Assembly (NCBI GenBank): GCA_023151315.1
Contig: JAKLJE010000012.1
Location: 27,584-91,583 of the forward strand
DNA from: Bacteroidia bacterium
GTDB taxonomy: Bacteria > Bacteroidota > Bacteroidia > Palsa-965
Direction of reading: 5' to 3'
DNA length: 64,000 nt
Shown here: positions 11,130 to 58,883 of the stretch, piece after piece
Numbering within the stretch: position 1 is the stretch's first letter
How the letters are laid out: every line of letters starts with the position of its first letter
Translations under genes and position numbers: made by a program
Notes under the pieces: model-generated
The model's database searches: none
Told to the model about the DNA's origin: nothing
The model's input: the letters and a program-made list of their open reading frames with translations, nothing else

Positions 11130-12320
11130 ATGGCGAACACCAATCTCGATTATTCTGATTTCTTCAAACCGCTTGATCTGAATTCCATCGCAGGCGGTAA
11201 TCAATATCTGGCTACGCAACTCGGTAACCTTGCCGCAATTCATACTTCTGCATCCGGTTGGCCTGATCTTTCTGAATGTCACTTCGCAATTATCGGTGTG
11301 AACGAAGATCGTCCTGCTGTTAGCAATATCGGCGCTGCTGATGCTCCTGATGAAGTGAGAAAGTATCTGTACAGATTGTTCCAGGGAAATTGGAATGTGA
11401 AACTTGCCGACTTAGGAAATATTGCTGCCGGCGCAACACCGCAGGATACCGACTTTGCAATCAAAACCGTGATGGGTGGATTGCTTCGCAAGAATATCAT
11501 TCCGATCATCATCGGAGGAAGTCATCATCTTACATACGCGCAGTATCTCGCTTATGAAGCTATTGAGCAAACAGTAAACCTGGTTGCAATCGATCCTCGT
11601 TTCGATATTGGTGTGGGTTCAGATGAATACACCAGCCAGTCATGGGTAAGTAAAATCATTCTGCATCAACCGAATTTCCTTTTCAATTTTTCAAACGTTG
11701 GTTATCAGACATATTTCGTGGAGCAATCTGCGGTGGAACTGATGAGCAAATTGAATTTCGATATTCATCGTCTAGGAGTTTGTCGCGATAAGATTGCAGA
11801 CATAGAACCGGTAATCCGCAACGCAGATCTCGTGAGTTTTGATATTTCATGCGTGCGTCGCGCAGATGCGCCCGGTTGCGGATTTGCATCACCGAATGGT
11901 TTCTCCGGCGACGAAGCTTGTCAACTCGCTCGTTACGCAGGTATCAGTGATAAATGCACTTCATTCGGAATCTTTGAAGTGAATCCGTTGAAAGATCCGG
12001 AAGGTCATACATCACATCTTGCTGCGCAAATGATCTGGTGTTTCGTTGACGGATACTATAACAGAAAAAAAGATTTTCCTTTCGGAACGAAAGACGATTA
12101 CACGCGTTACCGCGTGTTCCTCAAAGATCAGAATCACGAAATTATTTTCTTCAAGAGCAATCGCAGCGACAGATGGTGGATGGAAGTTCCTTATCCGCCG
12201 AATCAGAAAATACGCTTCGAACGTCACGCACTTGTTCCATGCACATATTCAGATTATGAACTCGCGTGTGCAGAAGAAATGCCGGATCGTTGGTGGCAGA
12301 CGTTTCAGAAACTTTCTTAG
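11130..12320 (+). CDS. Arginase or formimidoylglutamase family protein (ureohydrolase fold).
   Basis: Motifs IIGVNEDR and IIIGGSHHLTY. 396 aa. Confidence 0.6.
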   Translation: MANTNLDYSDFFKPLDLNSIAGGNQYLATQLGNLAAIHTSASGWPDLSECHFAIIGVNEDRPAVSNIGAADAPDEVRKYLYRLFQGNWNVKLADLGNIAAGATPQDTDFAIKTVMGGLLRKNIIPIIIGGSHHLTYAQYLAYEAIEQTVNLVAIDPRFDIGVGSDEYTSQSWVSKIILHQPNFLFNFSNVGYQTYFVEQSAVELMSKLNFDIHRLGVCRDKIADIEPVIRNADLVSFDISCVRRADAPGCGFASPNGFSGDEACQLARYAGISDKCTSFGIFEVNPLKDPEGHTSHLAAQMIWCFVDGYYNRKKDFPFGTKDDYTRYRVFLKDQNHEIIFFKSNRSDRWWMEVPYPPNQKIRFERHALVPCTYSDYELACAEEMPDRWWQTFQKLS

Positions 12321-14954: not shown

Positions 14955-16388
14955 ATGAAAAGATTGTTGTTCGCAGGCGTTGTTGCCATGTTATTGTTCA
15001 CTTCCTGCTCACAGGAAAATGGACAATTGATTGGCGTTCAAAACCGACCGGCATGGTATCCGTTCGATCCGTACGGAATGCTGTACTGTCCAATGGGCAG
15101 CTACAACATGGGACCGTCAGATGAGGATATTCCTTATGCCCACACAACGAAAGCTAAAACAGTTTCGGTACAGGCGTTTTACATGGACCAAACGGAAATC
15201 TCAAACAATGAGTACCGTCAGTTCGTGTATGATGTGCGTGACTCTATCGCACGTCGACTCCTCTCCGAAGAATACGAGGAAGAATACCTGATTCCGGAAG
15301 AAGAATGGATCGGATACGAAGACAATGGTCCTTTGTACATCGATGTTGACTATCCTCAGGATCCTTATCGTCCGTTGAATCGTTTGGAGAAAATCCGTTG
15401 GGACGAAACAGATCCTGACTACAAAGCTGCGTTGAACGACCTTTATCTTCCTATCGAAGAGCGTTTCTACAGCCGTAAAGACGTTGATACCCGCAAACTG
15501 ATTTTCGAATACTATCGTATCGACCTTCGTCTTGCTGCGTCAAAGTCTAACCGTTACAAGCCAAAAACAACTCCAGGCCCTGAAGGTCGTCAGTTCCCTA
15601 CACGTGAACAGGGAACCTATGACGTAACTAAGAAAGAAGGACAGCGTAACGGAGTAAACCGAAGCATCTTCATCATTAAAGATGTGATCAACGTTTACCC
15701 TGATACTTTGGCTTGGATTCATGACTTTACGTATTCATTCAACGAGCCAATGACCAATATGTATTTCTGGCATCCGGCTTATGATGATTATCCGGTGGTA
15801 GGTGTAACCTGGAAGCAGGCTCGTGCATTTTGTGTATGGCGCACAATGTTGCTGAACAACTTCCTGCGTTCAAACGATGAAGCAACTGTTCAGGATTTCC
15901 GTCTCCCAACGGAGTCTGAGTGGGAATACGCTGCTCGTGCCGGTCTGCAATTGTCTCCGTTCCCTTGGGGCGGTCCGTATATCCGTAACGCACGCGGATG
16001 TTTCTTAGGAAACTTCAAGCCAATGCGCGGTTCATACATCGATGATGGCGGATTCCACACGGTTAAGATTTTCTCTTATAACCCTAACGACTGGGGCTTC
16101 TATTGCATGGCTGGTAACGCAGCTGAGTGGACGAACAACGCGTTCGATGAATCAGCTTATGACTTCATGCATGACCTCAACCCTGATTACCAGTACGAGA
16201 CTACAGTTGCAGATGAGCAGATCCCTGTTCTGTGCCGCAAAGTAATCCGTGGCGGTTCGTGGAAAGATGTAGGTTTCTACCTGCAGAACTCTTCACGTAC
16301 TTATGAGTATCAGGATACAGCTAAGTGTTATGTCGGATTCCGTTGCGTAATGACCTTCCTCGGTCGTTCGAAGGATGATGATCTATAG
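14955..16388 (+). CDS. gldK: Gliding motility/T9SS lipoprotein GldK (PorK ortholog, FGE-sulfatase fold).
   Basis: Lipobox MKRLLFAGVVAMLLFTSC. An FGE/SUMF1-like domain carrying GGSWKD. AGGAGG lies 5 nt before the ATG. Confidence 0.88.
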   Translation: MKRLLFAGVVAMLLFTSCSQENGQLIGVQNRPAWYPFDPYGMLYCPMGSYNMGPSDEDIPYAHTTKAKTVSVQAFYMDQTEISNNEYRQFVYDVRDSIARRLLSEEYEEEYLIPEEEWIGYEDNGPLYIDVDYPQDPYRPLNRLEKIRWDETDPDYKAALNDLYLPIEERFYSRKDVDTRKLIFEYYRIDLRLAASKSNRYKPKTTPGPEGRQFPTREQGTYDVTKKEGQRNGVNRSIFIIKDVINVYPDTLAWIHDFTYSFNEPMTNMYFWHPAYDDYPVVGVTWKQARAFCVWRTMLLNNFLRSNDEATVQDFRLPTESEWEYAARAGLQLSPFPWGGPYIRNARGCFLGNFKPMRGSYIDDGGFHTVKIFSYNPNDWGFYCMAGNAAEWTNNAFDESAYDFMHDLNPDYQYETTVADEQIPVLCRKVIRGGSWKDVGFYLQNSSRTYEYQDTAKCYVGFRCVMTFLGRSKDDDL

Positions 16389-23852: not shown

Positions 23853-23936
23853 AAAGATAATGAATTCGTTTATGGGTTACAGTTCCGAGACAAGCCGCAT
23901 ACTTACGGATCGCTGAATTGCTTACCTTTGCACCCC

Positions 23937-25859
23937 ATGATTTCAGTGAGTAATTTAACAGTGGAATTCGGCGGTTTTACGCTGTATGATAACATTTCGT
24001 TCATGATCAATGCGCGGGATCGAATTGGTCTTGCGGGAAAGAACGGTGCCGGTAAATCTACGCTTCTAAAAATTATTGCAGGGTTGCAGAAATGCGATAC
24101 CGGAGACATCGGCATGCCCAATGGCTGCACTGTTGGATACCTTGCTCAGGATATGCAGCACAACATGGGTAAAACCGTGTATGATGAAGCAGCATCAGCA
24201 TTCAAAGAACTGCGTGAGATGGAAGAGAAGGTGGCTCGTATCACCAAGGAGCTTGAAACACGCACGGATTATGAATCGGATGAATACATGAATCTGATTA
24301 CAGAGCTGACGGAAGCAAGCGAACGCTCGCATGTACTCGGGGGCAGCTCATTGGAAGGGCAGATTGAACAAACATTAAAGGGACTTGGATTCAAGCATGA
24401 AGACATGCATCGGTTGATGGATGAGTTCAGCGGTGGATGGAGAATGCGTGTTGAGCTTGCGAAGCTATTGTTGCGTCGTCCGGATGTTTTGCTGCTTGAC
24501 GAACCAACGAACCACCTCGATATTGAATCTATTTTGTGGTTGGAGGAATTTCTGACAACATATGAAGGGTCTGTTGTGTTGGTGTCGCACGATAAATCAT
24601 TCCTTGACAACGTAACGAATCGTACTGTGGAAATTTCCATGGGCAAGATTCATGATTACAAAGCGAATTACTCAAAATATCTCGTGCTTCGTAAAGAGCG
24701 TCGCGAAACGCAGCTTGCTGCTGCAAAGAACCAACAGCGTGAGATTGAGAAAACGGAGAAGTTGATTGATCAGTTCCGTGCGAAAGCGAGCAAGGCTTCA
24801 TTCGCGCAATCGTTGATCAAGAAGCTGGATCGCATGGAGATTATTGAAATTGACGATGAGGACAATTCCACATTGCGATTCAAATTTCCACCGGCACCTC
24901 GTTCAGGTAAAGTTGTTGTGGAAGCAAACGACGTGACAAAAGTTTACGACGATAAAACAATTCTGAGTCGTGTGGATTTTCACATTGAACGCGAAGACAA
25001 AGTTGCATTCGTCGGAAAGAACGGAGAAGGAAAGTCGACAATGGTTCGTATGATCATGGGGGAGAAAACCACGAGCGGAACTGTTGGTCCGGGCTTCAGT
25101 GTTGAAGTCGGGTATTTCGCGCAGGACGATGCAGACAATCTTGATGGAAACAAAACCGTTTTCGAAACGATTGATGAGTTGGCAATCGGAGATGTGCGCA
25201 AACAGGTGCGCGGCATCCTTGGATCGTTCCTTTTTTCCGGTGATTCAATCGATAAAAAAGTGAAAGTATTGTCAGGCGGAGAGAGAACTCGTTTAGCACT
25301 GTGTCGTCTGCTGTTAAAGCCGCACAATTTGCTGATTCTCGACGAGCCTACCAACCACCTCGATCTTCGTTCGAAAGACGTATTGAAGCAAGCGCTGTCG
25401 AATTTTGACGGTACATTGATTGTGGTTTCACACGATCGCGATTTCCTTTCCGGACTGACAACAAAAACTTTCGAGTTCAAGGATAAACGCGTGAAGCAAT
25501 ACATCGGAGATGTGAACGAATTTCTTCTCGCTAAGAAAGCTGAAGATTTCCGCGCGATTGAACAGGCGGCAGCTTCAAATGTTTCCACGACCAATCAGGA
25601 CAAGAAACAGGAATCCGGCGATACACGAGATAAAGAGTCGCGTACATTGAAATCGCAGCTCAATACAGTGGAGAAGAAAATCGCAGAACTCGAGAAGAGG
25701 ATTGCGGATTTTGACGCGATTCTGAACGACGCGAACCGTTATCAGGAGTTGGTGAACGACCGCAAGAAGTTTGATGAATACGAGGCGATGAAGAAAGAGT
25801 TGGAGTCGAAAATGGAAGAATGGGAACGTATTCAGATGGAAATCGACAAATTGAAATAA
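23937..25859 (+). CDS. ABC-F family ATPase (tandem ABC domains plus C-terminal coiled coil, EttA/Uup/YheS-like).
   Basis: Two Walker A motifs (GKNGAGKST, GKNGEGKST). Two LSGG signatures. A K/E-rich C-terminal arm. Start at ATG 23937 because the first track codon is TTG. Confidence 0.85.
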   Translation: MISVSNLTVEFGGFTLYDNISFMINARDRIGLAGKNGAGKSTLLKIIAGLQKCDTGDIGMPNGCTVGYLAQDMQHNMGKTVYDEAASAFKELREMEEKVARITKELETRTDYESDEYMNLITELTEASERSHVLGGSSLEGQIEQTLKGLGFKHEDMHRLMDEFSGGWRMRVELAKLLLRRPDVLLLDEPTNHLDIESILWLEEFLTTYEGSVVLVSHDKSFLDNVTNRTVEISMGKIHDYKANYSKYLVLRKERRETQLAAAKNQQREIEKTEKLIDQFRAKASKASFAQSLIKKLDRMEIIEIDDEDNSTLRFKFPPAPRSGKVVVEANDVTKVYDDKTILSRVDFHIEREDKVAFVGKNGEGKSTMVRMIMGEKTTSGTVGPGFSVEVGYFAQDDADNLDGNKTVFETIDELAIGDVRKQVRGILGSFLFSGDSIDKKVKVLSGGERTRLALCRLLLKPHNLLILDEPTNHLDLRSKDVLKQALSNFDGTLIVVSHDRDFLSGLTTKTFEFKDKRVKQYIGDVNEFLLAKKAEDFRAIEQAAASNVSTTNQDKKQESGDTRDKESRTLKSQLNTVEKKIAELEKRIADFDAILNDANRYQELVNDRKKFDEYEAMKKELESKMEEWERIQMEIDKLK

Positions 25860-25885
25860 TCAGGTTGCGGGAATACTGTTTTTTA

Positions 25886-25893
25886 TATATTTG
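25886..25893 (+). promoter_or_regulatory. Candidate Bacteroidota sigma-A -7 box TATATTTG upstream of the hisG leader.
   Basis: It matches the TAnnTTTG consensus. A TTG sits at 25865-25867, about 18 nt upstream. The motif ends 4 nt before the leader ATG. Confidence 0.45.
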
Positions 25894-25897
25894 CCAC

Positions 25898-25954
25898 ATG
25901 AAAATGAACAACACAATGAAACATCACCATCAGTTTGCAGGGCGCAAGCTGTGA
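25898..25954 (+). CDS. Putative his leader peptide MKMNNTMKHHHQFAGRKL.
   Basis: An 18-codon ORF with CAT CAC CAT at 25922-25930. It lies between the promoter box and a terminator hairpin upstream of hisG. Confidence 0.5.
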   Translation: MKMNNTMKHHHQFAGRKL

Positions 25955-25979
25955 TTTTTCATTTGAGAAATATTTCACG

Positions 25980-26010
25980 AGGCTTGCTGTAAAGGCAAGC
26001 CTTTTTTATT
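25980..26010 (+). terminator. Attenuator/terminator hairpin upstream of hisG.
   Basis: AGGCTTGC (25980-87) and GCAAGCCT (25995-26002) form a perfect 8-bp stem with loop TGTAAAG, followed by TTTTTTATTT. A leader segment GCGCAAGCT (25943-51) can alternatively pair with the 5' arm. Confidence 0.7.
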
Positions 26011-26020
26011 TGTTAACGGT

Positions 26021-26887
26021 ATGAAAACAGAAACGAAACTCAGAATTGCAATTCAGAAGTCGGGACGGCTGAACGACGATTCCATCCGGATGCTGAAAGA
26101 ATGCGGAATTGAATTCGACAACGGCTTGAACAAACTGAAAGCATCCGCATTTAACTTTCCACTCGAAGTTCTTTTTCTTCGCGATGATGATATTCCGGAG
26201 TACGTTGAACAAGGTGTAGCGGATATCGGAATTGTTGGTGAGAATGTTCTTGTAGAATCAGGAGCCAAAGTGAAACTTATTGAGAAACTGGGTTACGGAA
26301 AATGCCGTTTGAGTATTGCGGTTCCGAAGGATGTTAAGTATTCCGGGATAAAAGATTTGAACGGAAAGCGTATCGCTACAACTTACAGTCGAGTGTTGCA
26401 GAAATATCTCGCGAAGAATAAAGTGAAAGCAGAGATACACGAAATCAGCGGATCAGTGGAGATTGCAACAGGAATCGGACTTGCGGAAGCAATCTGTGAT
26501 ATTGTAAGTTCCGGCAGCACACTGTTTACAAACGGTCTCAAAGAGGTGGAAACCGTGATGAAATCTGAAGCTGTTCTGATCGGTAACAATAAACTGAATG
26601 CAGCTCAACTGCGTATAGTTGAACGCTTGTTGTTCCGCATCCGTGCATCGAGAACTGCGAAGCGCAACAAGTATTTGCTTCTGAATGCGCCGGACAATAA
26701 ACTTGACACTATCTGCAAATTGATTCCGGGAATGAAAAGTCCGACTGTACTTCCTTTAAAGCAAAAGGGATGGAGCTCTGTTCATTCAGTTATTGATGAG
26801 GAAAAATTCTGGGACATCATTGAGCAGCTTCGTGACGCCGGAGCTGAAGGAATACTTGTAGTGCCAATCGAAAAAATGGTAGTGTGA
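26021..26887 (+). CDS. hisG: ATP phosphoribosyltransferase HisG (long form).
   Basis: N-terminus MKTETKLRIAIQKSGRLNDDS. 288 aa including the C-terminal regulatory domain. Confidence 0.9.
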   Translation: MKTETKLRIAIQKSGRLNDDSIRMLKECGIEFDNGLNKLKASAFNFPLEVLFLRDDDIPEYVEQGVADIGIVGENVLVESGAKVKLIEKLGYGKCRLSIAVPKDVKYSGIKDLNGKRIATTYSRVLQKYLAKNKVKAEIHEISGSVEIATGIGLAEAICDIVSSGSTLFTNGLKEVETVMKSEAVLIGNNKLNAAQLRIVERLLFRIRASRTAKRNKYLLLNAPDNKLDTICKLIPGMKSPTVLPLKQKGWSSVHSVIDEEKFWDIIEQLRDAGAEGILVVPIEKMVV

Positions 26888-28167
26888 TGATAAAGTACAT
26901 TGAATATCCGGATGCGGAGATGTTGAAGTTGCTTCTGCAACGTCCCGTGAACAACAATTCCGCTGACGAATCTGTAGTTGCTTCAATACTTGAAGATGTT
27001 CGTGCGAATGGAGACGCAGCAGTGCGACAATACACCGAGAAGTTCGATCACTGCACAATTGGTGAAATGCTGGTCAGTGAACAGGAAATTTTCAATGCCT
27101 ATCAGGCGGTTTCCATTGAATTGAAAGAGGCGATTGAGACAGCAAAAGCAAATATTGAACGTTTTCACCGAACGCAACACGTAGGCAGTGCACCGATAGA
27201 AACCATGCCGGGTGTTCGATGCTGGAGAAAATCGGTTCCAATTGAAACTGTCGGACTTTATATTCCCGGTGGTTCAGCTCCTCTGTTTTCTACTGTGCTC
27301 ATGCTTGCTGTTCCTGCAGTGATTGCAGGCTGCGGAAGAATCGTGTTGTGTACTCCGCCGGATAAGAACGGGAATATCAATCCTGCGATATTATATGCCG
27401 CGAGTACTTGCGGTGTTTCTGAAATTTATAAAGTGGGAGGAGTGCAGGCAATTGCAGCAATGTATTTCGGAACGGAGTCTGTTCCGCAGGTTTCAAAAAT
27501 CTGCGGCCCGGGAAACAGTTGGGTGACTATGGCGAAGCAACTCATCGCAAAAAACGGATTTCCTATTGACATTCCTGCCGGACCTTCAGAGTTGGCTGTG
27601 TATTGCGATAACACTGTTCCAGCAGAGTTCGTTGCAGCGGATTTATTGTCACAAGCTGAACACGGTGCCGACAGTCAGGTTCTTGTACTTTCAGAAGACA
27701 AAGGAATACTTCAGGAGATAATTGAAGCAATCAAAGTTCAGGTTGATGTTTTGCCTCGCAAGGAGATTGCGATGAAAGCGTTGGCGAACAGTGCAGCAGT
27801 TCTTGTAAAGAATCAGAATGATGCAATGGAAATCTTCAATAAGTATGCACCTGAGCATTTGATTCTCGCATGTGATTCCGCGGAGATACTGGCGCAGCAA
27901 GTAGTGAACGCAGGAAGTGTTTTCATTGGCGCATGGTCTCCGGAGAGCGCGGGAGATTACGCATCGGGAACGAATCATACATTGCCAACCAATGGAAATG
28001 CAAGAGGGTGGAGTGGCGTTTCTGTGGATACATTCGTTCGGAAGATAACTTTTCAGCACCTGAGTAAAGAAGGATTGCAACGAATCGGGAAGACGGTTGA
28101 AGTGATGGCGGAAGCAGAAGGCTTACAAGCGCACAGGAATGCAGTAACAATTCGTTTAGGAAAATAA
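26887..28167 (+). CDS. hisD: Histidinol dehydrogenase HisD.
   Basis: ATG at 26887 overlaps the hisG stop (TGATG). Roughly 426 aa with conserved HisD motifs. Confidence 0.9.
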   Translation: MIKYIEYPDAEMLKLLLQRPVNNNSADESVVASILEDVRANGDAAVRQYTEKFDHCTIGEMLVSEQEIFNAYQAVSIELKEAIETAKANIERFHRTQHVGSAPIETMPGVRCWRKSVPIETVGLYIPGGSAPLFSTVLMLAVPAVIAGCGRIVLCTPPDKNGNINPAILYAASTCGVSEIYKVGGVQAIAAMYFGTESVPQVSKICGPGNSWVTMAKQLIAKNGFPIDIPAGPSELAVYCDNTVPAEFVAADLLSQAEHGADSQVLVLSEDKGILQEIIEAIKVQVDVLPRKEIAMKALANSAAVLVKNQNDAMEIFNKYAPEHLILACDSAEILAQQVVNAGSVFIGAWSPESAGDYASGTNHTLPTNGNARGWSGVSVDTFVRKITFQHLSKEGLQRIGKTVEVMAEAEGLQAHRNAVTIRLGK

Positions 28168-28177
28168 AAGGAAGATA

Positions 28178-29245
28178 ATGTTCAATTTAGAGAAACTGAT
28201 CAGAGCTAACATTCTTGCACTGACACCTTACTCCTCTGCACGCGATGAGTTTAAAGGCGAAGCAAAAGTATTTCTTGACGCGAATGAGAATAGTTTCGGT
28301 TCTCCGGCTGGAGATTCGCATAATCGATATCCGGATCCGATGCAGAAGAATCTGAAGGATCGCTTGTCGGCAATTAAAGGCGTGCCGGCGGGAAATATTT
28401 TTCTCGGCAATGGAAGTGATGAAGTAATCGATATTCTGTTCCGCGTATTCTGCGAGCCGGGACGCGATAATGTGATTATTGTTCCACCCACGTACGGAAT
28501 GTATGAAGTGAGTGCCAACATTAATGCAGTTGAGGTGAGAAAAGTTCCGCTGACGGCAGAGTTTCAGCTGAACGTTGAAGGTATTTCCGAATCGGTTGAT
28601 GAAAATACCAAGTTGATTTTCATTTGCTCTCCGAATAATCCAACCGGAAACAGTATTGACCGAGATGATGTTGAATTCGTGCTCAATAACTTCAATGGCA
28701 TTGTCGCAGTGGATGAAGCGTACATCAATTATTCAAGGCAGAAGTCGTTTATAGCGGAGCTGACAGAATATCCGAACCTGGTTGTGATGCAGACGTTGTC
28801 TAAAGCATGGGGGCTTGCCGGTGTACGCATAGGAATGTTGTTTGCGTCAGATGAGATTATTGCCGTGATGAATAAGGTGAAGCCACCGTACAATATCGGC
28901 ACTCCGGCACAGGAGCTCGCACTAAATGCGTTAAACCGTATTCAGGAAGTAAATGAATGGATTCGCAGTACGGTGAGTGAAAGAGACAGGTTGGTACGTC
29001 AGTTGGCGCACAATCTGTTGATTCGAAAAATATATCCTTCAGATGCTAATTTTCTATTGGTAAAAGTTGATGAACCGAAGAAGGTATATAATTACCTTGT
29101 TGATAAAGGTATTATTATACGAGATCGTTCAGGGGTAACGTTATGCGAAGGATGTTTGCGAATTACCGTTGGTACTCCTGCAGAGAACGAAATGTTGATT
29201 ACCGAGTTGAATAACTATTCGAAACAGTTTTCATTTAATCAATAA
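28178..29245 (+). CDS. hisC: Histidinol-phosphate aminotransferase HisC.
   Basis: 355-aa class-II aminotransferase with the PLP lysine region TLSKAWGLAGVRIG. Confidence 0.88.
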   Translation: MFNLEKLIRANILALTPYSSARDEFKGEAKVFLDANENSFGSPAGDSHNRYPDPMQKNLKDRLSAIKGVPAGNIFLGNGSDEVIDILFRVFCEPGRDNVIIVPPTYGMYEVSANINAVEVRKVPLTAEFQLNVEGISESVDENTKLIFICSPNNPTGNSIDRDDVEFVLNNFNGIVAVDEAYINYSRQKSFIAELTEYPNLVVMQTLSKAWGLAGVRIGMLFASDEIIAVMNKVKPPYNIGTPAQELALNALNRIQEVNEWIRSTVSERDRLVRQLAHNLLIRKIYPSDANFLLVKVDEPKKVYNYLVDKGIIIRDRSGVTLCEGCLRITVGTPAENEMLITELNNYSKQFSFNQ

Positions 29246-29251
29246 AGCGCA

Positions 29252-30364
29252 ATGAAACAGAAACTGCTTTTCATCGACAGAGACGGAACACTAATTTGGG
29301 AGCCGCCGGATACTTTTCAGATTGACTCGTTCAGCAAGTTGAAATTTCTGCCGGGTGTTTTTTACTGGTTGAGAAAAATCGCCGAAGAACTGGATTATGA
29401 ATTGGTGATGGTCACGAATCAGGACGGTCTTGGCACGGCTTCTTTTCCTGAGGATACATTCTGGCCGGTGCAGAATTTCATTGTGCAATCAATGAAGAAT
29501 GAAAACATAATTTTCTCTGAAGTTTGCATCGACAGAAGTTTTCCTGCGGATAGTCTTCCGACGCGTAAACCAGGAACAGGAATGCTGACGAAGTATTTTG
29601 CTCCTGAGTACGATCTGCAAAATTCATTTGTGATCGGAGACCGTTTGACAGACGTGAAACTGGCGAAGAATCTCGGGGCAAAATCAATTTTCATCCGTAA
29701 CTATGATGAAGCGGGAGAATACGCTGCTTCAATAGATCTCATCGCCGAAGATTGGTCGCAAATCTATCAGTTTCTGAAACTTCCTCCTCGCAGAGTTTCT
29801 CATTCACGCAACACCAACGAAACCAGAATAAGCATTGATTTGAATCTGGATGGAAGTGGAAAAGGTAAGATACGAACGGGTCTTTCATTCTTTGATCACA
29901 TGCTGGAGCAACTGGTTCGTCACGGAAATATTGATCTTGATTTGGTAGCAGAAGGAGATCTTCACATTGATGAACATCACACAATTGAAGATACGGGAAT
30001 TGCGTTGGGAGAAGCGTTCACCGCCGCATTGAAAGAGAAGCGTGGAATTAATCGTTACGGATTTCTTTTACCCATGGACGATTGTTTGGCGCAAGTAGCA
30101 GTTGATTTCGGAGGAAGACCATGGATTGAATGGAATGCCGAGTTTAAACGGGAAAAAGTCGGAGACATGCCAACAGAAATGTTTTTTCACTTTTTCAAAT
30201 CATTCAGTGATGCGGCGCGATGCAATCTGAATATTAAAGCAGAAGGTGATAACGAGCATCACAAAATAGAAAGCATTTTCAAGGCCTTTGCGAAAGCGAT
30301 CAGAATCGCAGTGAAGCGGAATCCGGATGATAATTCATTGCCGACAACAAAAGGGATAATCTGA
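29252..30364 (+). CDS. hisB: Bifunctional histidinol-phosphatase / imidazoleglycerol-phosphate dehydratase HisB.
   Basis: N-terminal HAD motif [10 protein letters not shown]-terminal IGPD domain with [14 protein letters not shown]. Confidence 0.9.
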
Positions 30365-30371
30365 TTGACGA

Positions 30372-31481
30372 CTATTTCTGTTCTGGTGATTTAATCGGAT
30401 AATACGTGTTCAGAAGATTGTAGTACGGACCGAAATAGTGATGTGTGAAAATACTTTTACCGTTATCCGGAAAAAGTTTGTGATAGTTTTCGTCCGGCTG
30501 GAGAATAATAGGAATGCCGCATGGATAATAAGCCATGCTCTTTACGTATTTCTGTTTAGGCATACCCGGAATTCGCTTACGCACCAGTTTTCCTGTTTTG
30601 TGAGCGAGATATTTTCGGAATCTTCGTTCCGCTCTTTTTGCTCCGCGGTTCATTTTTTTAATCACGTGATTTCCGATGAGTTTGGCGGGGAATCCAATTC
30701 GCACGCGTTTATCAAATTCCGAAAAAGGATTTCCGGGGCTAAGATCATTTATGGTTTGTACACTGAATGGAACTTCCGGGACCCAATCAGCTGTGTTCAC
30801 TATTCTGAATGCCCATCCGCCCCGCGAAATAAAATCGAAGTCGTATGAATACTTCAGATTTCCGGGTTTTGGTGCAGCACTTCCGTAAACTTTTAATCTG
30901 ATATCTGCAGGAATCGTTACTCCTCGTTTGTAATGAAGATACGAGTACAGCAGAAACGAAATTGCTGCACCTTGTGAATGACCGACGATTATAAAATCGC
31001 GAATACCGTTTTTGTACTGTTCATTGATTTTATCAGTCACGTTTTTAGCAATGCTCGCGAGTCCGATTGTCCATCCGATATGCACATAAGCCAGTGAATC
31101 CTGCGCAAGTTTATAATCGAATAATATTCCGTTTCCCAAGTTCAGCTTTCCGGTTGCGGGAATCATTCCGGCATAGAAATTCTCCAACCAAGAATCATTA
31201 GAAGCAGTAGTTCCCCGCACGCTGATTACTGCCACTGAATCGTTGCTCAGCCACATGTCCCAGCGGTTGTCAAGTCCGCCAACGGTAGAGCGATGAATCA
31301 TATTATATCCGGCAGGATAAGGAACCCGCATTTTATTCCAAGGCGTGTCAATCTGATGAGCACTGATCTGAAACATTTTTCTGAATTCAGCACCGTCAAA
31401 ACCCGGTTGAATACGACGGGCTTCAGCCGCAGCATCAAACTGCAGCAGAAATAGTAGCGTTAAGACGAGAGCTCTGCCCAT
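30372..31481 (-). CDS. Secreted class-3 lipase-like alpha/beta hydrolase.
   Basis: Signal peptide MGRALVLTLLFLLQFDAAAEA. Nucleophile elbow IVGHSQGAAISFL. Encoded on the opposite strand between the two his sub-operons. Confidence 0.7.
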   Translation of the reverse strand: MGRALVLTLLFLLQFDAAAEARRIQPGFDGAEFRKMFQISAHQIDTPWNKMRVPYPAGYNMIHRSTVGGLDNRWDMWLSNDSVAVISVRGTTASNDSWLENFYAGMIPATGKLNLGNGILFDYKLAQDSLAYVHIGWTIGLASIAKNVTDKINEQYKNGIRDFIIVGHSQGAAISFLLYSYLHYKRGVTIPADIRLKVYGSAAPKPGNLKYSYDFDFISRGGWAFRIVNTADWVPEVPFSVQTINDLSPGNPFSEFDKRVRIGFPAKLIGNHVIKKMNRGAKRAERRFRKYLAHKTGKLVRKRIPGMPKQKYVKSMAYYPCGIPIILQPDENYHKLFPDNGKSIFTHHYFGPYYNLLNTYYPIKSPEQK

Positions 31482-31570: not shown

Positions 31571-31578
31571 TATATTTG
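31571..31578 (+). promoter_or_regulatory. Candidate -7 box TATATTTG upstream of the second his leader.
   Basis: TATATTTGCC occurs 4 nt before leader ATG 31583, identical to the hisG arrangement. Confidence 0.45.
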
Positions 31579-31582
31579 CCTT

Positions 31583-31630
31583 ATGATTCTTAAACACATC
31601 TCAGTACATCATCATTTCTTATCGTTTTAA
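31583..31630 (+). CDS. Putative second his leader peptide MILKHISVHHHFLSF.
   Basis: A 15-codon ORF with CAT CAT CAT at 31607-31615. It is followed by a terminator hairpin before the PabA/TrpG-type gene and hisH. Confidence 0.5.
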   Translation: MILKHISVHHHFLSF

Positions 31631-31664
31631 GGAAGCGATGGTAACTCTGTTGATATAAATCAGA

Positions 31665-31690
31665 ACCCGCTTCCAAAGCGGGTTTTTTAT
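31665..31690 (+). terminator. Attenuator/terminator hairpin upstream of the PabA/TrpG-hisH-hisA-hisF-hisIE genes.
   Basis: ACCCGCTT (31665-72) and AAGCGGGT (31676-83) form a perfect 8-bp stem with loop CCA, followed by TTTTTATTAT. GGAAGCG (31631-37), just after the leader stop, is perfectly complementary to CGCTTCC (31668-74) and can form an antiterminator. Confidence 0.7.
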
Positions 31691-31702
31691 TATCTTGAAA
31701 CT

Positions 31703-32287
31703 ATGCCTGATTTCAGAATCTTGATTATTGACAACTACGATTCGTTCACCTACAATTTGGTGCACGAAATCGGGCGAGTGTGTCCTGAGGCATATATACA
31801 CGTTGTGCAAAATGATGTTGTAGATCCGTCGGATTGTTTCAACTACAATTGCATTGTGCTTTCTCCGGGCCCGGGTATTCCTGAAGAGTCCGGAAAATTG
31901 CTGGATGTGATTCGGGTGGCGGCAGGAAAGATTCCTATTCTCGGAGTGTGCCTTGGTCACCAAGCTTTGAATGTTGCATGCGGAGGTCAATTGAAAAATC
32001 TCAGTAAGGTTTTTCACGGCGTGAGTACGCCGATCGTTGTTACCGACAAAGACTCTGTTTTATTCCAAGGTTTTGGAACACAGTTTAACGCAGGTCGCTA
32101 TCATTCCTGGGTGATCGATGAAGAAACGCTGCCGGAGTCATTTACGATTACAGCGCAGGATGAATCAGGTAATGTGATGGCCATCGAAAACAAAGAGAAA
32201 AAAATGTTTGGAATACAATTTCATCCGGAGTCAATCATGACACCTGAAGGCAAACGTATCATACGTAATTTTTTATCCGTTGTATGA
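31703..32287 (+). CDS. Class-I glutamine amidotransferase of the PabA/TrpG type (aminodeoxychorismate or anthranilate synthase component II).
   Basis: The hallmark IIDNYDSFTYNLV is present, with catalytic GVCLGHQ and a His at the expected position in FHPES. Distinct from the HisH gene that follows. Confidence 0.8.
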   Translation: MPDFRILIIDNYDSFTYNLVHEIGRVCPEAYIHVVQNDVVDPSDCFNYNCIVLSPGPGIPEESGKLLDVIRVAAGKIPILGVCLGHQALNVACGGQLKNLSKVFHGVSTPIVVTDKDSVLFQGFGTQFNAGRYHSWVIDEETLPESFTITAQDESGNVMAIENKEKKMFGIQFHPESIMTPEGKRIIRNFLSVV

Positions 32288-32868
32288 AGATCGTAATTGT
32301 TAAATATAACGCTGGCAATGCAACGTCTGTTCGATTTGCGCTGCAACGTTTGGGAGCAGACGCTGTAGTCTCCAATGAACCGGAGATTATCAAGAGTGCA
32401 GATCGTGTGATTTTTCCCGGAGTTGGCGAAGCGTCTTCTGCAATGCAGTTTTTACGCAAAGCCGGACTTGATAATGTGATAAAGGAACTGCGTCAACCGG
32501 TTCTGGGTATTTGCCTTGGAATGCAGTTGATGTGTTCCCAAAGTGAAGAAGGTAATACCGAAGCGCTTGGAATATTTCCTGTTCAGGTGAAGAAATTTCC
32601 TGAAGCTGAATTCAAAGTTCCGCATATGGGATGGAACACGCTGTCCAATCTTAAAGGACCATTGTTTGCAGGCGTTCCCGATCAGGCATTTATGTATTAC
32701 GTACATAGTTTCTATGCCGAACAATGTGCGTATACTATTGCAAGCACTGAATACATTCTGAATTATTCTGCTGCGTTGCAAAAAGACAATTACTTCGGTG
32801 TGCAATTTCACCCTGAGAAAAGCGGCGCTGAGGGAGAACGTATTATCAAAAACTTTCTGGAAGTATGA
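32284..32868 (+). CDS. hisH: Imidazole glycerol phosphate synthase glutamine amidotransferase subunit HisH.
   Basis: N-terminus MKIVIVKYNAGN. GICLGMQ motif. FHPEKSG motif. ATGA overlap with the upstream gene. Confidence 0.88.
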   Translation: MKIVIVKYNAGNATSVRFALQRLGADAVVSNEPEIIKSADRVIFPGVGEASSAMQFLRKAGLDNVIKELRQPVLGICLGMQLMCSQSEEGNTEALGIFPVQVKKFPEAEFKVPHMGWNTLSNLKGPLFAGVPDQAFMYYVHSFYAEQCAYTIASTEYILNYSAALQKDNYFGVQFHPEKSGAEGERIIKNFLEV

Positions 32869-33596
32869 TTGAGATTATTCCTGCAATAGACATTATTGAC
32901 GGCAAGTGCGTGCGACTTACCGAGGGGGATTACCAACGCATGACCGTTTACAATAGCGATCCGGTTGCGGTTGCGTCTCAGTTTGAACAGGCGGGTGTAC
33001 GCCGACTGCATCTCGTGGATCTGGATGGAGCGAAAGCGGGAACAGTGAAGAATCTTGCGGTACTGGAACGCATTGCTGCAGCTACTAAACTTATAATTGA
33101 TTTTGGTGGCGGAGTAAAAACAGAGACAGAAATGAATTCTGTTTTATCTGCCGGAGCTTCTTTTGTAACGGTTGGTAGTCTGGCTGCTAAATCGCCTGAA
33201 GTATTTGAAATGTGGTTGGCAAATTCCGGAGCGGATAATTTTTTCATCGGTGCGGATGTCAGAGCGGGAAAGATCGCAGTGAGTGGTTGGTTGGAGCAAA
33301 CAGATATCGAAGTGGTTGAGTTTATTCGCGATCTGATGAATAAACGGGTGCATTATTTTTTCTGTACGGATATTTCAAAAGATGGTAAACTGGAAGGGCC
33401 TTCGGAAGAGCTTTACAGAATGATCATCGCTCGCTGTCCGGGAATACGTTTGGTGGCGAGTGGAGGTATCAGTAATTGGGAAGATATTTATTGCATGGAG
33501 AAGCTGGGCTGTGAAGGTGTGATAATTGGTAAAGCATTTTATGAAAATCGTATTTCTATCAAGGAAATCGAAAAGTTTAATCTGAACGCTTTGTGA
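32865..33596 (+). CDS. hisA: ProFAR isomerase HisA.
   Basis: N-terminus [18 protein letters not shown]. (beta/alpha)8 fold. Overlaps the hisH stop. Confidence 0.88.
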
Positions 33597-33597
33597 A

Positions 33598-34353
33598 ATG
33601 CTGACGAAAAGAATTATTCCATGCCTTGATGTGAAGAATGGTCGCACCGTTAAAGGTGTCAACTTTGTAAATCTGCGTGACGCAGGTGATGCAGTTGAAC
33701 TGGCTTCGCGTTATGCGGAAGAAGGGGCTGACGAGTTGGTGCTTCTGGATATCTCTGCAACCGATGAAAAACGGAAAACATTAGCAGAACTCGTTAGGAA
33801 TGTAGCAGCAGCGGTGAATATTCCATTCACTGTTGGAGGCGGTATTGTCGGGATAGAAGATGTGCGTTCAATACTTGAAAACGGTGCGGATAAGGTTTCC
33901 GTGAATTCAGCCGCAGTGCGGGATCATCTGTTGATTGATGCGTTGGCGCGCGAGTTCGGAAGTCAATGCGTGGTTGTGGCGGTAGATACGCGTCGCACTG
34001 CTCAAGGGAATCGCGTATTTCTGAATGGAGGAAAGGTTGCAACCGAGCTTGATACTTTGGAATGGATCAAAGAAGCAGAACAACGCGGTGCAGGAGAAAT
34101 TCTTCTGACTTCCATGGATCATGACGGAACGAAGAACGGTTTTGATGTGGAATTTCTGAAAGAGGTTTCCTCATCCGTACGGATACCGGTTATCGCGTCA
34201 GGAGGAGCGGGCACAATGGAACATTTCGCAGAAGCATTTCTTAAATCGGGAGCTGATGCAGCACTGGCAGCGAGTATTTTTCATTTCGGTGAAATCCGCA
34301 TCAAGGACCTGAAGGATTATCTTTACAAGCAAGGAATTCAGATTCGCTTATGA
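33598..34353 (+). CDS. hisF: Imidazole glycerol phosphate synthase cyclase subunit HisF.
   Basis: N-terminus [23 protein letters not shown]. Confidence 0.9.
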
Positions 34354-35003
34354 GAACATTTACTATTGCAGCACTTCTGATTGTATTGATATCAGGATGT
34401 TCGCATTCCAGATTTGTGAAGCCGCTCAATCCGGGGCAACATGCAGTTACTGCTTCGTTCGGCGGACCATTGATAAAGTTCAGCGGTGCGGTAATTCCGA
34501 TTCCGCTTACTTCGATAGGTTACGGGTACGGAGTGGATACAAATCTTACGTTGTTCGGGAATCTGCACACTACTTCATTGTTGTACGGTACAGGACAAGT
34601 TGATGCCGGTGTGTGTTGGAATGTGTTTACCGTAAATCGTTTCGGTTTAAATGCTGCTGTGTCCGCGAATATGACCATGGATAAGTGGGAGAAGAATTTC
34701 AGAGCGTGGCCGGTAGTTGATTTGAATCTCACTTTCGACAGAAAGCAAGGCGGCTATTGGTATCTGGGATGCAATAACTGGATTGAGTTTACAAAGCAGC
34801 GCTCTCATGGCGTGAATCAGGAGCGACAATTGATATTCTCTCCGCAAATCGGGCATATGTTCCTGAAGGAAAAGTGGCGTTTCCAGATTGAAGCAAAATA
34901 CATTTTACCATACGTGAAGAACCAACCCAATGCAGTGGATTACATCGGGTTGAATCACTACGGAGCAACAGGAGTTTATTTCGGACTTTACAGAACATTC
35001 TGA
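34350..35003 (+). CDS. Hypothetical lipoprotein translationally coupled to hisF.
   Basis: Lipobox [10 protein letters not shown]. The ATGA overlap with the hisF stop, the beta-rich sequence and the C-terminal Phe suggest an outer-membrane protein. Confidence 0.5.
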
Positions 35004-58721: not shown

Positions 58722-58827
58722 ATTTTCTTCGGTTGAAGTATTGATGCGGCTAAGTTAACGGTATTAAACATCTTGCTGATGCGCGGACAGAACATGCAAA
58801 CAATCAGTCAAAATCGCTCAGTTCTGT

Positions 58828-58862
58828 AAAAATAAAAAGAGGCTGTCCCTTAAACAGCCTCT
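58828..58862 (-). terminator. Intrinsic terminator of the DsbD-alpha-like gene.
   Basis: AGAGGCTGT and ACAGCCTCT form a perfect 9-bp stem with loop CCCTTAA. On the minus strand it is followed by TTTTTATTTTT. Confidence 0.7.
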
Positions 58863-58883
58863 TTAACATAGTTTTCAAAACAC

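Follow-up and report, generated by a model that had tools for sequence, protein, structure and literature searches.

A probable histidine leader-peptide attenuator in front of hisG in a Bacteroidia bacterium and its relatives

Leader-peptide attenuation is a textbook mode of regulation in Enterobacteria and is barely documented in Bacteroidota. The region in front of hisG in an uncultured Bacteroidia bacterium of the lineage Palsa-965 (assembly GCA_023151315.1) raises the question of whether a histidine operon of this phylum is controlled in this way. The DNA analysed, hereafter the window, is a stretch of 64,000 nucleotides (nt) of contig JAKLJE010000012.1, and coordinates given without a locus name refer to it. 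The original prediction held that a short open reading frame (ORF) with three consecutive His codons and an intrinsic terminator form a histidine attenuator upstream of hisG. We consider it probable (about 0.85) that the element is a ribosome-mediated leader-peptide attenuator that senses charged transfer RNA for histidine (tRNA-His) and controls hisGDCB.

The hisG leader and its conservation

As read from the sequence, the element spans positions 25886-26012 and comprises a -7 box, an 18-codon His ORF and an intrinsic terminator. Its parts, including the pairing segments (regions 1 to 4), are listed below.

25865-25867, plus strand: TTG, a candidate -33 promoter element 18 nt 5′ of the -7 box
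25886-25893, plus strand: -7 box TATATTTG of the Bacteroidota sigma-A type (TAnnTTTG), 4 nt 5′ of the first ATG
25898-25954, plus strand: leader peptide ORF MKMNNTMKHHHQFAGRKL of 18 codons, from ATG 25898 to TGA 25952-25954
25915-25938, plus strand: region 1, the 5′ arm of the anti-antiterminator (1:2) hairpin as folded by RNAfold; includes CAGTTTGC
25922-25930, plus strand: regulatory His codons CAT CAC CAT
25944-25963, plus strand: region 2, the 3′ arm of the 1:2 hairpin in the folds; abuts the stop codon
25944-25987, plus strand: antiterminator (2:3) from constrained nascent-RNA folds, GCAAGCU:GGCUUGC, GUGA:UCAC and UUUUUC:GAGAAA
25979-26012, plus strand: intrinsic terminator (3:4), a 10-bp stem (25979-26003) with a 5-nt loop, then TTTTTATTTG; folding energy -15.4 kcal/mol
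26021-30364, plus strand: hisG, hisD, hisC and hisB (bifunctional), the presumably regulated genes, identified by NCBIfam equivalog matches

The -7 box, the ORF, the His codons and the hisG start codon (ATG 26021; TIGR00070 match, 195 bits) were all found where the original prediction had put them. The 8-bp hairpin that it described at 25980-26002 is also present, with arms AGGCTTGC (25980-25987) and GCAAGCCT (25995-26002), and the stem extends to 10 pairs. Directly 3′ of the 8-bp arm there are five T (26003-07) and then ATTT, so that the tract given as T6ATTT has six T if the last base of the arm is counted. The segment GCGCAAGCT at the 3′ end of the ORF, placed at 25943-51, actually occupies 25942-25950; it was said to duplicate the 3′ arm of the terminator, which is exactly true of GCAAGC (25944-49) and not exactly of the rest. 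The terminator is separated from hisG by 17 nt and the leader stop codon from the hisG start by 66 nt. The gene 5′ of the leader, on the same strand, encodes an ABC-F ATPase and ends at 25859.

The position of the -7 box predicts a leader transcript that would be leaderless or nearly so. The start codon of the leader is ambiguous, because there are two further in-frame ATG codons (25904 and 25916), both 5′ of the His codons; a covariance model from which the window was left out places the family start codon on ATG 25904. An extended ORF of 44 codons, starting from an ATG within the 3′ end of the ABC-F gene, was rejected: it begins 5′ of the -7 box and differs from the form found in relatives. 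The 121-nt leader region folds with -36.3 kcal/mol, as compared with -23.1 ± 3.1 for shuffled sequences (z = -4.3; none of 200 shuffles was equal).

We scanned one genome per species with a HisG alignment and collected 80 loci (designated by L numbers) whose HisG proteins are 62-97% identical. Most come from Chitinophagaceae/Chitinophagales, some from Sphingobacteriales and cytophagal families, and several from Acidobacteria (Pyrinomonadaceae). Within 300 nt upstream of hisG, a run of at least three His codons is present on the sense strand in 59 of the 80 regions and on the antisense strand in none; mononucleotide shuffles of the same regions yield 0.56 of 80. The comparison with related Bacteroidota that the original prediction had called for thus shows the His micro-ORF, the -7 box and the terminator to be conserved in dozens of species.

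The family set used below consists of 59 leaders, all of which have a terminator because its presence was a selection criterion. Their ORFs are 13-27 codons long (most commonly 16), start with GTG in two members, and typically encode M-x4-5-H-x-HHHH-x4-6; the longest His run is two codons in 7 leaders, three in 14, four in 32, five in 5 and six in 1. The motif TAnnTTTG ends 4-18 nt before the start codon in 54 of the 59, with 0.014 occurrences expected per 25-nt stretch, and the distance between the two peaks at 4 nt (17 loci, the window among them) and again at 7-10 nt. A TTG lies 13-26 nt upstream of the box (at about -33) in 50 of the 54 members that have it. In most members the sequence of the terminator stem is itself conserved (AAGGGCTTACC...GGTAAGCCCTT). 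An ABC-F gene directly precedes the leader in only two of the 80 loci (L001 and L004; a weak third match, in L028, lies ca. 2.2 kb upstream), and the leader therefore belongs to hisG and not to the upstream gene.

His-rich leaders such as MKFCTVQIHHLHHHAHFHHRAN also occur at six loci of Pyrinomonadaceae (Acidobacteria; L027, L041, L057, L059, L068 and L073), where HisG is 62-65% identical to the Bacteroidota protein and the terminator sequences differ. In the whole window, TAnnTTTG occurs 23 times on both strands together, about half as often as in dinucleotide shuffles (44.8 ± 7.3), a scarcity consistent with selection against stray promoters. One copy (23923-23930) coincides in part with TTG 23928, the start codon listed for the ABC-F gene; the true start of that gene is for this reason probably further downstream.

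Alternative pairings, proposed mechanism and rival explanations

The behavior of the leader RNA was examined by folding it with a ribosome mask, the footprint being assumed to cover -15 to +12 relative to the first base of the A-site codon; nascent RNA was taken to end before the 3′ arm of the terminator. In the window, nascent RNA without a ribosome forms the 1:2 hairpin at 25915-25963 (-17.1 kcal/mol; total -18.9 kcal/mol) and leaves region 3 free. The hairpin pairs AAUGAAACAUCAC and CAGUUUGC with GCAAGCUG and GUGAUUUUUCAUU; the His codons are base-paired in it, region 1 covering a portion of the His run, with 5 of the 9 nt in pairs. Placing the A site on the first, second or third His codon gives the 2:3 antiterminator instead (-16.5 to -17.7 kcal/mol). 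With the A site on the stop codon, region 3 is unpaired in nascent RNA (-0.5 kcal/mol), and since nothing holds it the terminator can form. The three pairings (1:2, -17.1; 2:3, -16.5; 3:4, -15.4 kcal/mol) are mutually exclusive where they share a region.

These folds bear out what had been proposed for the two ribosome positions. The 3′ end of the ORF does pair with the 5′ arm of the terminator: the first part of region 2, GCAAGCT (25944-50), is the alternative partner, giving seven pairs that extend to the -16.5 kcal/mol structure, and a ribosome at the stop codon covers this segment. The same folding of 62 leaders shows region 3 paired with upstream sequence in 60-61 of them under the His-stall mask, in 12 under the stop-codon mask and in 27 with no ribosome. 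The geometry expected of an attenuator, with region 2 freed by stalling at the His codons and covered at the stop codon, is seen in the folds of the window and, to the extent of these counts, in the 62 leaders. Region 2 (consensus GGTA[A/G]GC) overlaps the stop codon in 39 of the 59 family leaders and ends 1-6 nt before it in 11, the window being one of these; it is thus at or beside the stop codon in 50. The original prediction did not contain the 1:2 hairpin, which completes a mechanism that was otherwise right.

Pair counts were made on an alignment of the 59 sequences by MAFFT, which is not structure-aware. The results for the three helices are given below.

Terminator (3:4): 92.5% of cells paired; slid controls 28-68%; compensatory changes at 8 of 12 pairs; none of 500 shuffles equal
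Antiterminator (2:3): 87.5% of cells paired; slid controls 21-50%; compensatory changes at 4 of 9 pairs
1:2 hairpin: 72% of cells paired; slid controls 25-55%; compensatory changes at 15 of 20 pairs

Individual changes point the same way. In the window and L001, a U-A pair of the 2:3 helix has become C-G, with a matching change in the 3′ arm of the terminator, and the subclade of the window shows a coordinated replacement of TTAC/GTAA by TTGC/GCAA in regions 2, 3 and 4. In the 1:2 hairpin, the synonymous third position of the His codons (CAU/CAC) covaries with an A/G partner, and in 56 of the 59 leaders half or more of the nucleotides in the His codons have their partners 3′ of region 2. Region 1 falls in all three codon phases (23, 21 and 15 leaders), so that the residues following the His run (TYL, FLP, TCP etc.) are a by-product of the constraint on RNA. 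Judging from these patterns, the constraint is at the level of RNA rather than of the peptide.

A first covariance model, built from the 59-sequence alignment, finds members that were not in its seed: L067 (82.6 bits), L078 (67.9), L043 (60.8, truncated at the end of the contig), L033 (55.5) and L044 (44.3). Its sense-strand matches all lie just upstream of hisG, except in L033, where the distance is 1.25 kb. A second model, R2, was made from the matches of 61 relatives, with the window and L001 left out; it matches the window at 25901-26010 over its full length (model positions 1-119 of 119) with 54.1 bits and an expectation value (E) of about 1e-10, R2 E-values being rough because the calibration was shortened. 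A third and weaker model match in the window (58791-58868, 18 bits) was discarded as a leader, being a simple hairpin situated between two genes of the minus strand.

Several of these loci show peculiarities. In L033 (Bacteroidia), the leader match is at 1640-1747, hisG starts at ca. 2995 and a long open frame runs up to it; a gene may have been inserted behind this attenuator. The leader of L067 (2829-2951) is degenerate, with the RNA structure kept (82.6 bits) and a single His codon, as is the first leader of L165 (9878-9991), which has HH only; regulation may have decayed in these cases, or the assemblies may be in error. L002, L004, L005, L008, L009, L010, L013 and L028 form a subgroup whose leader ORFs are longer (22-27 codons) and enclose region 2 well before the stop codon.

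Of the features that define the class, four were found in sequence and folds: an upstream ORF with tandem codons for the end product, a terminator before hisG, 1:2 plus 3:4 pairing exclusive with 2:3, and the matching ribosome geometry. Given the anatomy, conservation, alternative pairings and covariation shown above, the element would work as follows. Transcription would begin within a few nt downstream of the -7 box, either on the leader ATG or immediately 5′ of it. When charged tRNA-His is scarce, the ribosome would stall on CAU CAC CAU and cover region 1, leaving region 2 free to capture the emerging region 3 before region 4 is made, and the polymerase would read into hisG. When it is plentiful, the ribosome would reach UGA and cover region 2, so that 3:4 would form and transcription would stop 17 nt before hisG. 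In an untranslated leader, 1:2 would form and the terminator with it.

Several points weigh against this interpretation. The full-length window RNA at equilibrium retains the terminator in every ribosome state; the switch is visible in nascent-RNA folds only, and antitermination must therefore be kinetic, as in classical attenuators. The 2:3 duplex of the window taken alone is marginal against shuffles (-11.3 kcal/mol, z = -1.7, 5.5% equal), and in the family the strong sequence conservation of the 2:3 helix keeps its covariation modest. The structures counted were derived from folds of the very sequences in which they were counted, and since the 2:3 and 1:2 helices came from per-sequence folds, some circularity was introduced; RNAalifold on the MAFFT alignment finds the terminator only. 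In about nine family members with longer ORFs, region 2 is well inside the ORF, and the rule of stop-codon masking consequently fails for them. The window, with only three His codons, is at the low end of the family. Finally, we infer the transcription start, the translation of the ORF, the stalling of the ribosome, the kinetic competition and the response to histidine from the sequence.

The same RNA switch might regulate a different step, namely Rho-dependent termination or translational coupling through re-initiation. The enterobacterial his leader is listed as possibly both intrinsic and Rho-dependent (PMC12360218), and short leader ORFs have been proposed to raise downstream translation via re-initiation (PMC4833913). 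Here, however, a canonical terminator with stem and U-tract is conserved with compensatory changes, re-initiation is unlikely because 66 nt and that terminator separate the leader stop from the hisG start, and neither alternative needs the conserved 2:3 complementarity at the stop codon. We therefore regard such a step as improbable. Conservation of a start codon, of His codons in frame with it and of a stop codon placed in region 2 makes sense only if the leader is translated, which speaks against a sensor RNA that dispenses with the ribosome, either by T-box-like binding of tRNA-His or as a riboswitch, even though T-box elements control his genes in Firmicutes. Regulation of clostridial and Bacillus hisZ dependent on histidyl-tRNA has also been mentioned (PMC4833913). 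An Rfam scan of the whole window at the gathering score returned no family above the threshold, two local scans at E up to 10 and scans of three related loci likewise, and neither a T-box nor a riboswitch model matched around the hisG leader of the window even at E up to 10, which makes a ribosome-independent sensor very unlikely.

The micro-ORF might alternatively encode a functional His-rich small peptide, for instance a metal-binding one, the hairpin being merely the terminator of its gene. The ORF is indeed conserved, and His-rich peptides can bind metals. Yet outside the His run it is nucleotides and not amino acids that are conserved, with region 1 in three codon phases; the frames range in length between 13 and 27 codons, some of them starting with GTG; the choice of synonymous His codons covaries with the RNA partner; and his genes always follow the ORF directly, in the window at two separate loci. 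This explanation has very little to recommend it. Least credible of all, and hardly worth entertaining, is a chance ORF combined with the terminator of the ABC-F gene, with no regulation. The hairpin does lie 3′ of the ABC-F stop codon on the same strand, but the -7 box sits between that stop and the ORF, 78 of the 80 relatives have another gene upstream and yet keep leader and terminator, and the His-run enrichment (59 of 80 against 0 of 80 antisense) is not what chance would give. As far as computation goes, synteny and enrichment rule out a mere ABC-F terminator. Leader-peptide attenuation thus remains the preferred explanation of the hisG leader.

A second histidine leader and a possible change of specificity

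The window contains another His leader, which the original prediction had not included and which is an internal replicate of the finding at hisG. Its parts and the genes behind it are listed below.

31571-31692, plus strand: second His leader; fold z = -4.6; R2 match of 25.2 bits, E about 0.0025
31571-78, plus strand: -7 box TATATTTG, 4 nt before the ATG
31583-31630, plus strand: leader ORF MILKHISVHHHFLSF, read from the sequence
31631-31674, plus strand: antiterminator, -16.5 kcal/mol under His stall
31662-31686, plus strand: terminator, then a T-run
31703-35003, plus strand: trpG/pabA-like amidotransferase gene, hisH, hisA (profile matches for these three) and two ORFs (33598-34353 and 34350-35003)

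Under the stop-codon mask, region 3 stays unpaired here too, just as at the hisG leader. Unlike there, the antiterminator is also the minimum-energy fold of nascent RNA without a ribosome. The first gene under this leader, a trpG/pabA-type amidotransferase gene (31703-32287; TIGR00566, 182 bits), overlaps the hisH start by 4 nt with its stop codon. Its product is 66% identical to the counterpart in L161, as compared with 93% for HisG, and the gene is therefore either fast-evolving or replaced. The ORF 33598-34353 is assigned as hisF only by position and by the Pfam profile of its L161 counterpart; the L161 counterpart of 34350-35003 has no Pfam match, and the PRA-CH/PRA-PH (hisIE) gene of L161 is located two genes further on. 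Between hisGDCB and trpG-like-hisHAF, the two blocks of his genes, lies a class-3 lipase gene (PF01764) at 30372-31481 on the minus strand; relatives with as little as 76% HisG identity share this insertion. In one genome, each half of the split his regulon carries its own His leader.

Four relatives carry a leader on the far side of the lipase gene.

L161 (HisG 93%), 15564-15680: gene order of the window; His-type second leader VKKNSKSQNHHHRI with GTG start
L164 (HisG 78%), 11978-12107: three more minus-strand genes, then His-type leader MKDNKNKHLHCRHHSIIS before the amidotransferase (GATase) gene and hisHAF
L162 (HisG 82%), 15551-15675: Trp leader MKGYSNNKHWWHNSIFNRTV before trpE-trpG-trpD-trpC-trpF-trpB
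L165 (HisG 81%), 15553-15675: degenerate leader of the L162 type before trpE-trpG, then other genes

The leader is directly beside the lipase gene in L161, L162 and L165, and three genes intervene in L164. The lipase-side leaders share the promoter box and the terminator form GCCCGCT...CACAGCGGGC-TTTGTT. At this orthologous position, the leader peptide carries KHWWHN in the Trp leaders of L162 and L165, that of L165 having a TTG start and CW in place of WW. The leaders of L164 and L162 align over their whole length, CAT TGC CGA CAT CAT (HCRHH) in one facing CAT TGG TGG CAT AAT (HWWHN) in the other. Since GC-rich CCCGC hairpins are common terminators, terminator likeness alone is insufficient, and the ORF-wide alignment is the stronger argument.

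These sequences suggest that one attenuator lineage may have changed, in one direction or the other, between His and Trp specificity by few substitutions as the downstream operon changed; the evidence consists of five sequences. If true, this would be a natural example of specificity rewired by few substitutions at an orthologous attenuator. That the second-leader lineage switched specificity, and that the leader peptides are translated from (nearly) leaderless messenger RNAs in a phylum poor in Shine-Dalgarno sequences, is put forward tentatively, at odds slightly below even.

The His-leader model also cross-matches Trp leaders with 29-44 bits (L119:799-912, L124:821-951, L104:711-851, L084:163-285 and L088:450-564). 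These leaders, e.g., MMKQQNIWWWNSLKD and MKTILNNTWWWNNLRHTS, are located ca. 1.5-1.8 kb upstream of trpG on metagenomic contigs and have the same layout of promoter, ORF and terminator. They were brought in by a metagenome scan with the trpG-like protein, whose relatives were at most 54% identical, so that the scan was uninformative on conservation of the second leader.

Comparison with known systems

The nearest described element is from the same phylum. The original prediction supposed that such leaders are not routinely annotated in Bacteroidota; a hisG leader has in fact been annotated in Flavobacterium psychrophilum, in the course of mapping its transcriptome (Guerin et al. 2021, ISME Commun 1:33, PMC9723704, Table S7 and SI D9), and the supplement to that paper considers the hisG, pheA and trpE operons to be probably under leader-peptide attenuation. 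The F. psychrophilum hisG element shows read-through in some conditions, with the highest hisG expression in minimal media, and is conserved in Flavobacteriaceae without an Rfam match (PMC9723704); its expression lends the proposed mechanism indirect support. This element, THC0290_N_0824, resembles the window leader in phylum and gene, in its sigma-A -7 promoter, in a 1:2 hairpin over the His codons and in the terminator; its His-rich ORF has 19 codons (MSLNQLHHHHFHICSQAKC). It aligns closely with L080, a member of our family model (50.6 bits), and on this alignment the window leader is homologous to it. The two differ in that the mapped start in F. psychrophilum gives a 5′ untranslated region of 15 nt, whereas the -7 box of the window is 4 nt from the first ATG; in His codons, four plus one as against three; and in the terminator sequence, CCCGTTTGA as against GGCTTGC. 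The published work provides annotation and expression profiles, without analysis of alternative structures or comparative analysis. A literature search for papers on his leaders in Bacteroidota found none beyond this annotation. Among computationally predicted attenuators outside Proteobacteria, Vitreschak et al. 2004 (FEMS Microbiol Lett 234:357) reportedly list candidate amino-acid attenuators "in some cases" in Bacteroidetes/Chlorobi.

An analogous Trp leader of Bacteroidetes, Bacteroid-trp (RF01692), was described by Weinberg et al. 2010 (PMC2864571). It belongs to the same phylum as the window leader and has the same architecture, which in the Trp leaders encountered here on metagenomic and related contigs runs from a -7 box a few nt before the ATG through about six codons and WW or WWW to a terminator; Bacteroid-trp differs from the window leader in its Trp regulatory codons and in its operon, trpE and following genes. 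RF01692 matched neither leader of the window, nor, in one scan, the Trp leader of L084. Sub-threshold matches to Phe_leader (22.9 bits) and the proteobacterial Trp_leader (24.7 bits) rest mostly on terminators and were set aside. Because no curated RNA family includes the Bacteroidota his leaders, annotation pipelines miss them; the comparative set of 59-61 leaders, together with its covariance model and the three pairings that the pair counts support, is a usable family definition.

An analogue in mechanism is the enterobacterial his operon leader hisL (His_leader, RF00514), with which the window leader shares tandem His codons in a leader ORF, their location within the first hairpin arm, alternative hairpins and a terminator before hisG. 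The two are not similar in sequence, and RF00514 gave no match at the gathering score in the window and none at E up to 10 in 25700-26200. There are seven His codons in a row in hisL and six segments that pair (A-F), as compared with three codons and four segments here, and its ORF is led by a Shine-Dalgarno sequence, whereas that of the window is nearly leaderless, in a phylum largely without such sequences. The design is compact, with the stop codon inside the antiterminator strand and the His codons inside the opposing hairpin. The basic finding is ordinary regulation of a known kind: the window leader is most probably a classical attenuator with the logic of hisL, outside RF00514, and its particular features are a very short or absent 5′ untranslated region, a stop codon in or abutting the antiterminator strand and three His codons.

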